NCBI GenBank assembly: GCA_007096525.1
Contig: SFAQ01000031.1
Span: forward strand, 15,666 to 79,665
Source of the DNA: Microcystis wesenbergii Mw_QC_B_20070930_S4
Lineage (GTDB): Bacteria; Cyanobacteriota; Cyanobacteriia; Cyanobacteriales; Microcystaceae
Length of the DNA: 64,000 nt
Direction of reading: 5' to 3'
Shown here: positions 30,125 through 61,779 of the stretch, one piece after another
How positions within the stretch are numbered: position 1 is the stretch's first letter
How the letters are laid out: every line of letters begins with the position of its first letter
Notes under the pieces: generated by a model
The model's input: the letters and a program-made list of their open reading frames with translations, nothing else
What the model was told of the DNA's origin: nothing
Databases searched by the model: none
Translations under genes and position numbers: made by a program

Positions 30125-32131
30125 ATGTCTGCATTTATTGAAGTCGATCACATTGATAAGGTTTTCCCTCTCCCCGATGGCCGTCAATATATTGCCCTAA
30201 AAAATATCGATCTCAGCGTTACTCAAGGGGAATTTATCTCTTTAATCGGTCATTCCGGTTGTGGGAAATCCACCCTCTTAAATATGGTCGCCGGACTCGA
30301 TCGCCCCACGGTGGGAGGGGTGATTTTAGAGGGAAGAGAAATTAAAGGCCCCGGCCCCGATCGCATGGTGGTCTTCCAGAATTATTCTCTGCTGCCTTGG
30401 TTAACCGTCCGGGAAAATATCGCCCTAGGAGTTAACCGTGTGCTGCGTCATCTGCCGGCCGCTGAACGCAAAAGTGTCATCGAACATAGTATCGATATGG
30501 TACACCTGCGCCATGCCGCCAACAAACGACCGGGAGAATTATCGGGAGGCATGAAACAACGGGTAGCGATCGCCCGCGCCTTGGCCCTACGGCCAAAAGT
30601 CCTGCTACTCGATGAACCCTTTGGGGCGCTGGATGCGTTAACCAGAGGCAATTTACAGGAACGTTTGATGGAAATCGTCGAAGAAAGCCACGTTACCTGT
30701 ATCATGGTCACGCATGATGTGGATGAAGCCCTATTACTATCCGATCGAGTGGTGATGTTAACCACCGGTCCGGAAGCCCATATCGGTCAGATTCTCGATG
30801 TTCCCATTCCCCGGCCCCGGCATCGTTTAGAAGTAGTTAATCACCCTAGTTACTACGCCCTCCGTAACGAGATCGTTTATTTCCTCAACCAACAGAAGCG
30901 ATCGAAGAAAGTCGGTCAACCCACCGGACCGGTGACGGTGATCGGCCAAGCTACCCGACTGAAAACCAATCCCACCATCGGTTTTATCCCCCTCACCGAT
31001 TGCGCCCCGATTATTATCGCCCAAGAGAAAGGTTTCTTCGCCGAGGAAGGATTAGAGGATGTTATCCTGCAACGGGAACCCAACTGGAAAGCACTTGCCC
31101 AAGGAGTGGCTACCGGTCGTCTCGATGCAGCCCAGATGGTGGCGGGAATGCCCCTGAGCATGACCATTGGGGCCGGCAATAAGCCCTCTGTCCCCGTGAT
31201 TAGCGCTTTGGTACTCAGTCGCAACGGTAACGCCATCACCCTCAGCAATAAATACAGGGAATTGGGGGTAGAAAAACTGGAGGACTTGAAGGATGCCCTC
31301 CTGCAAAGTCCCGATAAAATCGCCACTTTCGGCATGGTTCACCCCGCCTCCATGCACAATCTACTGTTACGCTACTGGTTAGCTAGTGGCGGCATCGATC
31401 CCGATAGTGATGTCAATTTAGCCGTAATTCCGCCGCCTCAGATGGTTTCCCTACTAAAAGCGGGTAATATCGACGGTTATTGTGTGGGGGAACCCTGGAA
31501 CTCCTACGCCGTTCACGAAAAATTAGGCTACGTTATCGCCACCGATCTTGATATTTGGCCCGGACACCAGGAAAAAGTCCTCGGAGTCAAGGAAACTTGG
31601 GCGGCGAAACATCCCGAAACCCATATCGCCATGGTGAAAGCTTTAATCAGAGCCTGTGAATACTGCGATGATCGGCGTAATCGAGAAGAAATCGTCAATA
31701 TTCTCAGTCAGCCCCAGTATGTGGGCGTGGATAGCGCAATTATTCGCCCCGGTTTCCTCGATGGTTACGATCGCGGTTTAGGAACTGCCCCCGAACCCCT
31801 ATTCCGATTTAATCAGTTTTACGTCGATCAAGCTAACTGTCCGGGCCGGAGTGAGGCCCTATGGACCCTAACTCAGCTTGCCCGTTGGGGTTACGCCCCT
31901 TTCCCCCGCAACTGGGTGGAAGTGATTGAACGCGTCCGTCGTCCCGATCTGTTTGGGGAAGCTTGCCGGTCCCTGGGCCTTCCCGATTTGGAACCCGATC
32001 GCCACAGTTTTGCCCTCTTTGATCATCTTATTTTCAATCCTGACGATCCGATCGGCTATCTAGAACGTTTCTCGATCCGTCGCGATTATCGCGTCTCGGA
32101 AGTTCTCCTCGATGATCCTGTCGCTAATTAA
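30125..32131 (+). CDS. nrtC: Nitrate ABC ATPase with C-terminal NrtA-like regulatory domain
   Basis: GHSGCGKS, LSGGMKQR, second domain with GYCVGEPW. Confidence 0.93.
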   Translation: MSAFIEVDHIDKVFPLPDGRQYIALKNIDLSVTQGEFISLIGHSGCGKSTLLNMVAGLDRPTVGGVILEGREIKGPGPDRMVVFQNYSLLPWLTVRENIALGVNRVLRHLPAAERKSVIEHSIDMVHLRHAANKRPGELSGGMKQRVAIARALALRPKVLLLDEPFGALDALTRGNLQERLMEIVEESHVTCIMVTHDVDEALLLSDRVVMLTTGPEAHIGQILDVPIPRPRHRLEVVNHPSYYALRNEIVYFLNQQKRSKKVGQPTGPVTVIGQATRLKTNPTIGFIPLTDCAPIIIAQEKGFFAEEGLEDVILQREPNWKALAQGVATGRLDAAQMVAGMPLSMTIGAGNKPSVPVISALVLSRNGNAITLSNKYRELGVEKLEDLKDALLQSPDKIATFGMVHPASMHNLLLRYWLASGGIDPDSDVNLAVIPPPQMVSLLKAGNIDGYCVGEPWNSYAVHEKLGYVIATDLDIWPGHQEKVLGVKETWAAKHPETHIAMVKALIRACEYCDDRRNREEIVNILSQPQYVGVDSAIIRPGFLDGYDRGLGTAPEPLFRFNQFYVDQANCPGRSEALWTLTQLARWGYAPFPRNWVEVIERVRRPDLFGEACRSLGLPDLEPDRHSFALFDHLIFNPDDPIGYLERFSIRRDYRVSEVLLDDPVAN

Positions 32132-58578: not shown

Positions 58579-58765
58579 GGGATCATCCCACTTTTGCCAT
58601 AAGCAATTGTACTTAGATGCGAAATACTTATATGGCAAGCCTTTTCGGGAGTTCATAGATTTTCAACGGTTCTCGCGCATTGTGTGATTGGAACCAGAAT
58701 CGTTACTACAAAAGCCTTCTCACCTTTCTGAGCATTTATACTCATTACATAATTGGGATGCTCCC
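58579..58765. mobile_element. 187-bp MITE
   Basis: TIRs GGGATCATCCCACTT / AATTGGGATGCTCCC (13/15). Confidence 0.78.
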
Positions 58766-58786
58766 ATTCAACGTTGAGGAAATACC

Positions 58787-58984
58787 GTGAACATCAGCCT
58801 AGATCTACCTTCAGAGCCAGAGAATGAGTTATCAAGAAAATCCTCCTAAAACAGGGCTGGAGCCGGTTGCTTACTGGGAAAGTGTTGGGGTTATTGGCTC
58901 CCCACCTGATATTGCTGTTGGGCATAATGCAACCCTTGGCACTTTCAACGTGAAGCACTATCGAGTCATCCCAGGCTTGAGCAT
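58787..58984 (+). pseudogene. Collapsed, internally deleted copy of the vapBC locus at 59976-60708
   Basis: Three colinear blocks match 59954-60022, 60097-60173 and 60616-60686. Confidence 0.88.
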
Positions 58985-59018
58985 TGATTATGCTTGTGGA
59001 GTCCATCTGTTATCATCT

Positions 59019-59159
59019 TGGGTAGTTCTGTAAACGGAACTGCCCGGATGCACATCTGCCGGTATTACACAAGAGGAAGCTCTCAACAATATACAGGAAG
59101 CGATCGAGCTTTATTTACAACCCGACGCTATCGACTTCTACCCGGACAGTAATCCGTGA
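59019..59159 (+). pseudogene. HicB-family antitoxin relic
   Basis: WVVL*TELPGCTSAGITQEEALNNIQEAIELYLQPD; no start codon; in-frame stop. Confidence 0.72.
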
Positions 59160-59228: not shown

Positions 59229-59456
59229 ATGACTACTCTGTTGCAAAAAGCATTCACAGAAATCCAGAAACTGCCAGAGTCTCTTCAGGATGAACTTGCT
59301 CAACAATTGCTGGAAGACATTGAAAGTGAATTAAAATGGCAGCAAAGCCTTTCTAACGAAGATCTGGAATTGGGAGCTTTAATAACAATGGCACAGGAAG
59401 CCCTGATAGAAGAACAAGAGGGAAGAACAGAAGATAAAGGCTTTGGGGAAGAATGA
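59229..59456 (+). CDS. Type II TA antitoxin
   Basis: 75 aa acidic protein; ATGA overlap with the toxin. Confidence 0.78.
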   Translation: MTTLLQKAFTEIQKLPESLQDELAQQLLEDIESELKWQQSLSNEDLELGALITMAQEALIEEQEGRTEDKGFGEE

Positions 59457-59728
59457 AGTCAGCCAGAACCAAGAGGTTTCGTCAACTTTTTCTCAGTTTG
59501 CCGCAAAGGGTACAAGAAACAGCCAAGAAAAATTACGAGATTTGGCAAGAAAATCCATTTCACCCCAGCCTAGAGTTCAAAGAGGTGAAACCAAGAGAAA
59601 AAATCTGGTCAGTCAGAGTCGGCATTGGATGGCGAGCATTAGGGATTAAAAAGTCAGACGAAGAAAAGATAGTTTGGTTCTGGGTTGGGTCGCACTCCGA
59701 GTATGACAAGATTCTAGGTAAGAATTAG
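59453..59728 (+). CDS. RelE/ParE-like toxin
   Basis: NPFHPSLEFK, WSVRVGIGWRALG, WFWVGSHSEYD. Confidence 0.85.
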   Translation: MKSARTKRFRQLFLSLPQRVQETAKKNYEIWQENPFHPSLEFKEVKPREKIWSVRVGIGWRALGIKKSDEEKIVWFWVGSHSEYDKILGKN

Positions 59729-59733
59729 GAGCG

Positions 59734-59819
59734 ATCTAACCAATCACTGCACCCGACCGAGAGTTAGACTAATAATATTATTCAAGGTTGATGATAGCGG
59801 GTCAGTGCGATCGTTATCT
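59734..59819 (+). other. Integron attC recombination site (86 bp)
   Basis: R'' ATCTAAC, 5 nt, L'' ACTG(C)ACC with an extra base; L' GGTCAGT, 6 nt, R' GTTATCT; second unpaired base after CCCG. Confidence 0.78.
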
Positions 59820-59881
59820 GTAAATATTCTCATTTTCAAGGTTTAATTGGGCGATAACTCTATCAATTAAATCACAGCCCT
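59812..59881 (-). repeat. Diverged duplicate of the dusB 3' end
   Basis: 65/70 identical to 60725-60794; encodes GCDLIDRVIAQLNLENENIYR*. Confidence 0.92.
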
Positions 59882-59975
59882 AGGCTGGTTTGACCCAAGG
59901 AAACCCAACCCCTTCGTTTAACTGAATATATTCCGATATAATCAAAGACAGGTCATTGAACGTTGAGGAAATACC

Positions 59976-60320
59976 GTGAACATCAGCCTAGATTTACCTT
60001 CAGAGCTAGAGAATGAGTTATCTGCAGAAGCTTCTCATCTCAAATTGCCTTTATCAGAGTATATTCTGCGTGTTCTCTCCTTTCGCCCTTTTCTTCAAAA
60101 TCCTCCTAAAACAGGGCTGGAGCTAGTTGCTTATTGGGAAAGCGTTGGGGTTATTGGCTCCCGACCTGATATTATCGATAGTCAGGAGCAGGCAACAACT
60201 ACTAATACTATTAATAAGATAATCCATGCAACAACATCTACGACCCGACCTGATATTATCGATAGTCAGGAGCAGGCAAGCAAATTGCGCCATGAAGCTG
60301 AAACCCGTGAGCGGGCTTAG
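59976..60320 (+). CDS. VapB-like antitoxin carrying an in-frame 84-bp insertion
   Basis: GTG start after GAGG, TATAAT upstream, directly before a PIN toxin; RPDIIDSQEQA occurs twice. Confidence 0.78.
   Translation: MNISLDLPSELENELSAEASHLKLPLSEYILRVLSFRPFLQNPPKTGLELVAYWESVGVIGSRPDIIDSQEQATTTNTINKIIHATTSTTRPDIIDSQEQASKLRHEAETRERA
60160..60279. repeat. Exact 36-bp direct repeat flanking a 48-bp unique spacer
   Basis: CCCGACCTGATATTATCGATAGTCAGGAGCAGGCAA at 60160-60195 and 60244-60279. Confidence 0.95.
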
Positions 60321-60327
60321 GTAGTAA

Positions 60328-60708
60328 ATGTACCTTGTCGATACTGATGTCATGATTGATATTCAGCGGGGTTATGAGCCTGCAATCGCTTGGTTTGCCT
60401 CTCTCCCAGAACTGCCGAGTATCTCTGGCTTTGTTGTGATGGAGTTGATTCAGGATGCTCAGAACCAGCAACAGGTTCGTCGAGTCCTACAGCTTGTAAA
60501 ACCGTTACCCATTGTTTGGCCTACTGAAGCTGACTGTACCCGTGCTTTATCTGACTTTACGACTTACCATCTGTCTCATAAAGTTGGACTGATTGATGCC
60601 TTAATTGCCGCTTCTGCCGTTGGGCATAATGCAACCCTTTGCACTTTCAACGTGAAGCACTATCGAGTCATCCCGGGCCTGCGCATGGAGCAACCCTATA
60701 GTCGCTGA
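60328..60708 (+). CDS. VapC/PIN-domain toxin
   Basis: YLVDTDVMID, MEL, GLIDALIAA, TFNVKHY. Confidence 0.9.
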   Translation: MYLVDTDVMIDIQRGYEPAIAWFASLPELPSISGFVVMELIQDAQNQQQVRRVLQLVKPLPIVWPTEADCTRALSDFTTYHLSHKVGLIDALIAASAVGHNATLCTFNVKHYRVIPGLRMEQPYSR

Positions 60709-60712
60709 AGTA

Positions 60713-60732
60713 GCCTAACCCCAACGTTATCT
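60713..60732 (+). other. Collapsed attC relic
   Basis: GCCTAAC (RYYYAAC) 4 nt after the vapC stop, joined via CCCAAC directly to GTTATCT at the dusB stop. Confidence 0.5.
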
Positions 60733-61779
60733 GTCAATATTCTCGTTTTCAAGGTTTAATTGGGCAATAGCTCCATCAATTAAATCACAGCCCTCCCCCA
60801 GGGATTCGATCCGCGAAAACCGATCGCGCCAAACCGCCGCACCGGTAAAATCCTGACAATACCAAGCCAGATGTTTCCGCGCCTGCCAGATACCGCGTTG
60901 TCCCTTGTATAGCCATAGCCCCTGTAAATGCTCTTTAGCTAGGCTTAACAGGTCAATAGAGGTGGGTTTCGGCAACTTTTTGCCTGTTTTGAGGTAATAA
61001 TCGATTTCCCCCACCAAATAGGGATAACCGAGGGTTCCCCGCGAACACATCACCCCATCGGCCTGGGTAAATTCCAAACAATTAATCGCCGCTTCCACAG
61101 AAACAATATCACCATTAGCGATGACAGGAATCGATAAAACCTCCTTCACCCGTTTAATCCATTGCCAATCGGCCGGCCCGTGATAACCCTGTTCCCTAGT
61201 GCGTGCGTGCAGGGTCAACATTTGCGCTCCCGCATCTTCCAAACGACGGGCAAAATCGATAATATTAATCTCTTGATCGTTCCATCCCAAGCGAGTTTTC
61301 ACCGTTACCGGCACCGATACCGCTCCCACCACTTCCCTAACAATTTGCTCGGCAATTTCTGGCTGTCGTAAAAGGGAAGAACCGCCGCCTTTTTTAGTAA
61401 TTTTATTAACAGGACAACCCATATTAATATCGATGGTCATCGCTCCTTCTTTAACCGCTTTTTCCGCTGCCACAGCCATAAAATCGGGACGGCAATCAAA
61501 TAATTGCATACTAATTGGTTGTTCCTTGTCCCCGATAACCATCAATTGCGGTAACTCTTGCAGCTGGGAGATTTCTGTCGCATTAACCATCTCCGTATAG
61601 AGCATGGAATCAGGAGCAAAACGTCTCACCAAGCGCCGAAAAACTAAATCGGTGACACCGGATAAAGGTGATTGCAAGACGCGGCTATGCACTGCTAAGT
61701 TACCGATTTTGAGAGGGGATGAGTAGATAGCCATAGGACCGGTTAAAAAATCAACAGCCAACACCAGCAAACCGAACAA
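60727..61779 (-). CDS. dusB: tRNA-dihydrouridine synthase
   Basis: SPLSGVTD, DINMGCP, GGGSSLL, TVKTRLG, LHART, IANGDI. Confidence 0.9.
   Translation of the reverse strand: MFGLLVLAVDFLTGPMAIYSSPLKIGNLAVHSRVLQSPLSGVTDLVFRRLVRRFAPDSMLYTEMVNATEISQLQELPQLMVIGDKEQPISMQLFDCRPDFMAVAAEKAVKEGAMTIDINMGCPVNKITKKGGGSSLLRQPEIAEQIVREVVGAVSVPVTVKTRLGWNDQEINIIDFARRLEDAGAQMLTLHARTREQGYHGPADWQWIKRVKEVLSIPVIANGDIVSVEAAINCLEFTQADGVMCSRGTLGYPYLVGEIDYYLKTGKKLPKPTSIDLLSLAKEHLQGLWLYKGQRGIWQARKHLAWYCQDFTGAAVWRDRFSRIESLGEGCDLIDGAIAQLNLENENIDR

Follow-up and report, generated by a model that had tools for sequence, protein, structure and literature searches.

A duplicated dusB 3' end in Microcystis wesenbergii may mark a frozen remnant of integron-type cassette traffic

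Genomic islands insert into the ends of tRNA, tmRNA or dusA genes and restore them. Toxin-antitoxin cassettes are well known in sedentary chromosomal integrons, for example the Vibrio superintegron, and may stabilize arrays against loss. By definition, an integrase-less cluster of attC recombination sites (CALIN) comprises no fewer than two of them (Cury et al. 2016, PMC4889954), and integrons have been recorded for Cyanobacteria at the phylum level (PMC4889954, PMC2426708). We found no paper on Microcystis integrons in the literature searched. Here we analyze a 64,000-nt stretch of the Microcystis wesenbergii Mw_QC_B_20070930_S4 genome (contig SFAQ01000031.1, positions 15,666 to 79,665; hereafter the window), in which a small unit encoding the toxin-antitoxin pair VapBC lies between two copies of the 3' end of dusB, a tRNA dihydrouridine synthase gene. 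We lean toward reading this dusB locus as a frozen remnant of integron-type cassette traffic plus one old duplication, and not as an active mobile island. The gene and the two copies of its end are:

60727-61779, minus strand: dusB, tRNA dihydrouridine synthase, 350 aa (Pfam Dus, 1.4e-99).
60725-60794, minus strand: right repeat copy, the last 70 nt of dusB including 2 nt past the stop (repeat search).
59812-59881, minus strand: pseudo-tail, a non-functional copy of the last 70 nt of dusB, comprising 21 codons, the stop, and 2 nt beyond (repeat search and translation).

An original prediction, made from the letters of this DNA alone, described 65/70 repeats at 59812-59881 and 60725-60794 that both code for the last ~21 DusB residues, and a repeat search of the window together with translation bears this out. 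The two copies form a 70-nt direct repeat (65/70, 93% identical) with a spacing of 913, and each codes for the last 21 DusB residues. Translated on the minus strand and each followed by a stop, the pseudo-tail reads GCDLIDRVIAQLNLENENIYR and the true end of the 350-aa Dus protein reads GCDLIDGAIAQLNLENENIDR. The repeat has two copies in total across the 4.5-Mb genome. Its structure recurs in independent assemblies, and it is therefore not an assembly artifact.

For comparison we used 17 Microcystis species genomes, comprising the window's own genome and 16 congeners. The last 476 nt of dusB are 93-99% identical across all 16 congeners, and the DusB C-terminus is complete throughout. Five variable positions in the tail form a mosaic among the 17 genomes and 10 strains, so mosaic that tail alleles were dropped as a marker of which tail is resident. 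The mosaic likewise favors neither side on the suggestion that the DusB C-terminus had been swapped. Such a swap does not follow from a crossover at G|TT (the bar marks the joint), which would leave DusB's own C-terminus in place.

The pseudo-tail begins at an integron attC that closes a ParE-type toxin-antitoxin cassette:

59229-59728, plus strand: ParE-type toxin-antitoxin pair, in which a 75-aa antitoxin open reading frame (ORF; 59229-59456) overlaps a 91-aa ParE_like toxin (59453-59728).
59734-59819, plus strand: integron attC of the ParE cassette, 86 nt (sole hit of model R1 in the window).

Model R1 is a covariance model built from nine intI-linked sites (85-89 nt) of genomes G006, G010, G012, and G015 alone. 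The proposed attC pairing covaries, with 7 pairs that change on both sides, and 0/500 shuffles reach the observed covariation score. Run against the 64-kb window, the model returns a single hit, 59734-59819, over its full length (1-86) at 38.4 bits (E=5.3e-8), so the full attC-type sequence originally placed at 59734 stands. The outer boxes, ATCTAAC (R'') and GTTATCT (R'), fit RYYYAAC and GTTRRRY; in R' the GTT is conserved and the remaining bases are those of the downstream DNA. The hairpin is imperfect: CACTG-C-ACCCG-A-C pairs with G/CGGGT/CAGTG, leaving a C and an A unpaired. These two left-arm bases are spaced as in the seed sites, and the length of 86 nt lies within the 57-141 nt range. 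The site begins 5 nt past the ParE stop codon, and other attCs of the same genome start 5-13 nt past an ORF stop or overlap the stop.

The crossover of this attC, G|TT at 59813|59814, coincides with the first base of the 70-bp repeat. Among relatives the DNA that follows the attC differs exactly from CG|TT onward (TTATCT of the dusB tail, TTAGGC, TTAGAA, or TTAGAC), and unrelated DNA starting exactly there is the signature of integron cassette boundaries. Judged by structure and sequence, 59734-59819 is a genuine integron attC of the Microcystis family, and we predict its recombination by an integron integrase. One recognizable attC was found per dusB locus when the window and 20 related loci were scanned, which makes this a solo attC and not a CALIN (PMC4889954). 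Neither the window nor the genome contains an intI, and with a single attC the locus is neither a complete integron nor a CALIN.

Other ways of recognizing such sites were less useful. A single-stranded DNA fold of 59725-59822 gave unremarkable z-scores (-0.3, -1.2), at first sight an argument against an attC; folding discriminates poorly when the variable loop of a site is long, and the covariance model overturned this reading. A search for attC-like sites by regular expression and duplex energy gave a great deal of noise, and a stricter version was used for seed picking alone. BLAST of the palindrome against intI-linked arrays gave matches of 10-12 nt only; the family likeness is structural.

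Integron integrases are encoded in the genus. With the IntI profile TIGR02249 (cut-off 265 bits) we identified full-length IntI, at 444-467 bits, in 4 of the 17 genomes:

G015:C25:22957-23898: full-length IntI gene (TIGR02249).
G012:C26:29617-30531: full-length IntI gene (TIGR02249).
G006:C1:2991069-2992010: full-length IntI gene (TIGR02249).
G010:C1:4445947-4446834: full-length IntI gene (TIGR02249).

Small arrays of canonical 85-89-nt attCs adjoin these genes. Ten other species carry IntI fragments, 9/10 of them N-terminal and mostly limited to the first ~105 residues. The window's genome has no IntI (best TIGR02249 match 37 bits, versus the cut-off of 265), and no integrase gene was found near dusB among the 17 genomes. 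Model R1 hits number 5-22 per Microcystis genome and are dispersed over the chromosome.

To the right of the attC crossover lies a 913-bp unit, 59814-60726, that contains, in order, the dusB pseudo-tail, a hairpin resembling repetitive extragenic palindromes (REP-like), a spacer, vapB, and vapC:

59882-59909, plus strand: REP-like hairpin repeat, 28 nt, AGGCTGGTTTGACCCAAGGAAACCCAAC, heading the vapBC module (fuzzy motif search, 17 matches in the genome).
59910-59975, plus strand: spacer 5' of vapB, presumed vapBC promoter region (conserved with vapBC in all contexts).
59976-60320, plus strand: vapB-like antitoxin gene, 114 aa (ORF with an in-frame 84-bp insertion/duplication).
60328-60708, plus strand: vapC, PIN-domain toxin, 126 aa, intact (Pfam PIN, 1.8e-10).

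A PIN-domain toxin directly 3' of a small antitoxin ORF, with 7 nt between the vapB stop and the vapC start, assigns 59976-60708 by its predicted products to the type II toxin-antitoxin systems of the VapBC kind. The NCBIfam VapC models match vapC, all under their cut-offs, and vapB has no Pfam or NCBIfam match. The 84-bp in-frame insertion or duplication in vapB is bounded by an exact 36-nt repeat (60160-60195 and 60244-60279); most relatives lack 60196-60243, as seen from BLAST gaps. A consensus promoter scan gave no match in 59910-59975, and that scan and its terminator counterpart contributed nothing further. The unit codes for vapB and vapC alone, with no integrase of any kind in or near it. 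It is flanked by G|TT on either side, at 59813|59814 and 60726|60727, the second of these being the dusB stop codon on the opposite strand, and it has no functional attC at its 3' end as an integron cassette would.

In place of such an attC, the right end of the unit carries a short sequence built from attC-like parts:

60713-60732, plus strand: candidate collapsed attC of the vapBC cassette, GCCTAAC (R'') + CCCAAC (right spacer) + GTTATCT (R'), with G|TT at 60726|60727 (sequence).

The TTA within this R' is the dusB stop codon on the opposite strand. The same 7+6+7 form, GTCTAAC TTTACC G|TTATACTGAATCGG..., is found at a true cassette boundary in contig C144 of the same genome and in the intI-linked array of G012 (L067), and in contig C145 of the window's genome a full-length attC precedes the same downstream cassette, TTATACTGAATCGG.... 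The C144 form (GTCTAAC TTTACC GTTATAC) lies on the minus strand ~2 kb from an attC at 30387-30472. At the vapC-dusB junction of G001 the sequence is GCCTAAC TTCACC GTTATCT, and TTCACC is the right spacer of the canonical attC G006_5239. The recurring form and the G001 spacer therefore make descent from an attC plausible, not membership in the family. On this comparison we consider it fairly likely that 60713-60732 is a collapsed attC, and vapBC was probably once a cassette as well. The collapse could have occurred by slippage between two AAC triplets, one in R'' and one at the end of L' (CAAC), which would delete the hairpin and leave R'', the right spacer, and R'.

The joint at the other end of the pseudo-tail has a different character. 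Here dusB sequence meets the 28-nt hairpin repeat, as ...CACAGCCCT|AGGCTGG or, at greater length, ...ATCACAGCCCT|AGGCTGGTTTGAC. The joint contains no GTT or AAC and thus is not an integrase crossover. It is identical in the window, G014, G015, G010, and 4 metagenome contigs, that is, in every copy found, and thus arose once. On these grounds the pseudo-tail joint appears as the product of an illegitimate (non-site-specific) event that happened a single time. Integration of a circle with vapBC and a dusB tail, as originally proposed, is not supported by a joint of this kind, nor by a locus with no integrase nearby in a genome that lacks IntI.

The arrangement in relatives varies in length and little in content. 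Tail copies are separated by 410 bp, 913 bp, ~1.7-1.9 kb, or 4.5 kb, and every interval holds the vapBC unit, deleted, interrupted, or extended by a ParE block. No independent cargo was found between tail copies; the search for other cargo at dusB 3' ends that the prediction called for thus returned the same vapBC unit. A tail-bearing unit occurs at the dusB locus only, with none at another attC or at an attI in the 17 genomes. Identical VapC is listed in 112 blocks of public assemblies, and in 10/10 examined places that code for it the 913-bp spacing is kept, with the same two tail alleles in 9/10. One public contig (L092, ENA ERZ937545) has the window's ParE, vapB, and vapC and a different dusB allele from the vapC-dusB junction onward, which indicates that ordinary homologous recombination acts at the locus. 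G003 has ParE-attC-dusB without the vapBC unit and with the ParE promoter intact. As a separate observation, L068 (VYLM01000032.1, 2248-6171) is of the window type; its vapB is interrupted by a 3.9-kb insertion, and its vapC is the deleted allele described below.

Left of the ParE cassette the window holds further remnants, one of which bears directly on how the tail was copied:

58765-58987, plus strand: degraded, internally deleted older vapBC copy (repeat search; three colinear blocks).
59037-59159, plus strand: C-terminal fragment of a HicB-like antitoxin gene (translation TELPGCTSAGITQEEALNNIQEAIELYLQPDAIDFYPDSNP, then a stop).

The three blocks of the degraded vapBC are 92-96% identical to 59954-60022, 60097-60173, and 60615-60689, and in G015 the degraded block is contiguous with the ParE cassette. 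The locus therefore has two vapBC copies and two dusB tails in the same order: vapBC remnant ... tail copy / vapBC ... tail. In G015 a vapC remnant is joined at G|TT to tail-hairpin-vapBC, a joint between tandem units. A history of tandem duplication accounts for both the vapBC remnant left of the pseudo-tail, in the same order, and the G015 joint. The order and the one novel joint common to all carriers fit a tandem duplication, short of proof, as the left unit is interrupted and partly deleted. Tandem duplication was the alternative by which the original prediction could be refuted, and it fits well through the degraded second vapBC, although no pure tandem allele is among the forms found.

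The history that we favor would run as follows. A vapBC module with the hairpin at its head and its own attC at its end may have sat against the dusB stop. An illegitimate event would then have tandemly duplicated the segment hairpin-vapBC-attC-tail. Insertion of the IntI type could have placed the HicB and ParE cassettes at the G|TT of the left copy, after which the left vapBC copy would have decayed, the right attC would have collapsed, and IntI would have been lost from the lineage. On this account the unit is fixed today: the genome has no IntI, the right side has no working attC, and the strains all keep one spacing. Its removal would be possible only through RecA-type recombination of the two 70-bp repeats, which would leave ParE-attC-dusB as in G003.

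The end of dusB is a hot spot at which the real tail has different neighbors across the 17 genomes. These are an intact vapC end in 2 genomes, a deleted vapC in 7, an attC right arm in 5, and other sequence in 3. In the deleted allele (7/17) an internal vapC CCG|TTACC is fused to CG|TTATC at the dusB stop. The attC right arm (5/17) is full or eroded from the left, and the arms form a series in which 86, ~48, ~23, and ~20 nt are retained, and then perhaps CA(A/C)CG alone. Such a series suggests an old attC at dusB that was eaten away from the left, and on this reading the coincidence of the dusB joints is less striking. Even so, the GTTA of the stop codon may act as a non-classical landing site of the kind described by Loot et al. 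2024 (cited in PMC12614218).

Several results weigh against this history. The right-hand site is not recognizable as an attC: in a 2.4-kb search model R1 gives it 3.9 bits (E=7.9), the outer boxes alone align, and 72 positions are absent. Of the reduced attC originally placed at 60713, the string GCCTAAC CCCAAC GTTATCT and its recurrence at a cassette boundary hold up, and the attC origin is plausible. A genome-wide comparison of RYYYAAC-N6-GTT with other spacings did not discriminate for or against the collapsed form. The left junction of the HicB/ParE insert, 58987|58988 (...ATTGA|TTATGC), departs from a clean G|TT and lacks the end of the old vapC, so a tandem duplication has to be supplemented by a further deletion. 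Two intact vapBC-tail units in tandem were found in no genome. The ParE-attC-dusB arrangement of G003 may just as well be ancestral, an empty site of the sort that the original prediction proposed. Finally, the repeat copies differ by 6-7%, versus 2-3% in most dusB orthologue comparisons, which fits import from another lineage.

The last two points lead to the alternative that survives best, close to the one first proposed, which we nevertheless regard as unlikely. Here a circle carrying dusB tail-hairpin-vapBC, perhaps with an attC, entered a ParE-attC-dusB genome, either via IntI at G|TT or by homologous recombination in the 70-bp tail, and was later locked when its attC collapsed. The 913-bp unit has G|TT at either end, the left one being the crossover of a real attC, G003 offers an apparently empty arrangement, and the 6-7% divergence of the copies would follow from import. 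In G015, which has a full IntI, the order CCG|TTATCTG-tail-hairpin-degraded vapBC-HicB fragment-ParE-attC-CG|TTAGAA is bounded by G|TT and ends in a real attC. Insertion of cassettes at non-classical attG sites, outside integrons, is established (Loot et al. 2024, cited in PMC12614218). Nevertheless, the tail-to-hairpin joint, lacking GTT, demands a prior illegitimate event, which makes a circle no simpler than duplication in place, and transfer between lineages is required in addition. The restriction of tail-bearing units to the dusB locus in the 17 genomes, the lack of IntI in the genome, and the invariance of the unit in all sampled strains also count against it. Of the model as originally set out, the real attC, the repeat at G|TT, the genome without the unit, and the recurring 7+6+7 form stand; the absence of an integrase, the single-origin joint, and the lack of independent cargo do not agree with it.

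The sole vapBC copy elsewhere likewise fails to support a circle. This second locus, with a complete copy and the hairpin, is present in G003 (L053, C1 ~2,959,900) and G007 (L052, C226), flanked by genes for an ABC transporter and a C5 DNA methyltransferase and not at an attC; at L053 it encodes an 86-aa vapB without the insert. It has the first 34 nt of the dusB tail on the right, within a larger insert, and these 34 nt are the non-conserved C-terminal extension of Microcystis DusB that comes after the conserved ...AIAQL. The empty site of the second locus was considered as a clue to mechanism and discarded; the insert exceeds the module and does not end at the tail.

Less likely again, to our judgment, is a self-repairing variant, in which GTTATCT at the dusB stop is a preferred attG-like landing site for IntI, and a vapBC cassette that captured the last 68 nt of dusB moves in and out without damage to the gene. 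It would account for the fact that the joints of at least four unrelated sequences with dusB all fall on one nucleotide or a few bases from it. If the dusB stop is indeed a recurrent landing site, it would be a natural attG example outside Proteobacteria.

It is improbable that integron chemistry played no part in the repeat, that is, that the locus is a toxin-antitoxin mosaic reshuffled by homologous or illegitimate recombination after natural transformation, with the attC carried along incidentally in the ParE module. In the 17 species the locus is strongly mosaic, with many breakpoints away from G|TT (for example 59189, 59748, 59758, and 58987), the L092 breakpoint near the vapC-dusB junction is one of homologous recombination, and REP-like hairpins and miniature inverted-repeat transposable elements (MITEs) flank the modules. 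Against this, the DNA that adjoins the attC, beginning exactly at G|TT, is of at least four unrelated kinds, congeners have full-length IntI genes and homologous attC arrays, and the vapC deletion allele joins internal CCG|TTACC to CG|TTATC at the dusB stop. A dedicated island of the dusA or tRNA-gene type, whose tyrosine integrase would target the dusB 3' end and whose element would restore it, has the geometry of 70-bp direct repeats of a gene 3' end around accessory genes in its favor and is very hard to credit for a unit of merely 913 bp with no integrase in it or within 56-64 kb of the window, the same right joint in all copies, and no independent cargo.

Other features lie around these elements or elsewhere in the genome:

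58580-58764, no strand assigned: MITE-like dispersed repeat that bounds the variable region on the left and adjoins the end of an SLH-protein gene (genome copies).
C74:4822-4907: dispersed attC, own genome (R1 hit).
C144:30387-30472: dispersed attC, own genome (R1 hit).
C71:1435-1525 and 2416-2503: dispersed attCs, own genome (R1 hits).
C145:6143-6225: dispersed attC, own genome (R1 hit).
C166:105156-105243: dispersed attC, own genome (R1 hit).

The first 117 nt of the MITE-like repeat have 92% copies at the ends of contigs C60 and C2 of the same genome. The HicB-like fragment matches Pfam HicB_lk_antitox (7.5e-6) at 26.5 bits, slightly below the cut-off of 27, and the ParE toxin matches Pfam ParE_like at 2.9e-9, with an identical toxin in many assemblies. 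The hairpin repeat belongs to a family AGG(T/C)TGGGTTGA..GAAACCCAAC, the majority of whose 17 fuzzy-search matches in the genome are clear members; it is often preceded by a HIP1-containing leader, GCGATCGCCGATCTTGT, and also heads vapBC in other contexts, with the loop in either orientation. The 28-nt hairpin repeats were found at several rearrangement joints.

Several attCs of the window's genome lie directly behind small ORFs, by eye one BrnA/CopG-type antitoxin-like and one retropepsin-like. The same genome also has, at C172:116-170, 55 nt that match the left arm and loop of the window's attC at 94.5% and lack the right arm. In L099, L104, and L035/L043 (G008, G006), where the ParE toxin is identical, the attC behind it shares the left arm and has another loop and right arm; this chimeric attC (88 nt, 30 bits) is succeeded by G|TTAGAC and a truncated-globin cassette.

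Microcystis, a bloom-forming genus whose genome is notoriously fluid, has an integron system in decay, and several of its attC-tagged cassettes are toxin-antitoxin pairs. If the favored history holds, the dusB locus is a worked example of cassettes frozen beside a housekeeping gene, with the integrase lost, an attC hairpin collapsed, and the end of the host gene duplicated. Two details are unusual: the cassette-like unit includes the end of a neighboring gene, and the collapsed form of attC recurs. For annotation, the 70-bp repeat would be a relic and not the attachment site of an active island.

Among described systems, solo attCs and CALIN come close. The dusB locus shares with them an 86-nt imperfect hairpin with R'' and R' boxes and unpaired bases, a position directly behind an ORF, G|TT boundaries, the lack of an integrase nearby, and homologous arrays beside IntI in related genomes. 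Unlike a CALIN it has one recognizable attC, and its host is Microcystis. As in insertion at secondary attG sites (Loot et al. 2024, cited in PMC12614218), the attC of a cassette runs at G|TT into ordinary chromosomal DNA, in this case the GTTA that the dusB stop provides; the dusB locus would be a putative case of that process, and its reconstructed empty target is ambiguous. The self-promoted type II toxin-antitoxin pairs (ParE-type, VapBC/PIN, and a HicB remnant) resemble Vibrio superintegron cassettes, whereas the dusB locus has no large array or integrase, one of its cassettes has apparently lost its attC hairpin, and one carries the end of a neighboring housekeeping gene. Direct repeats of a target gene end flank accessory DNA and leave the gene intact, as in tRNA, tmRNA, and dusA islands; in contrast to these, the unit is tiny, has no integrase and a joint of single origin, and involves the 3' end of dusB and not the 5' part of dusA. 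A plain tandem duplication with later decay of one copy would likewise give vapBC and a dusB tail twice in the same order, with one joint common to all carriers, and what sets this locus apart from it is that foreign cassettes interrupt the left copy exactly at an attC crossover.

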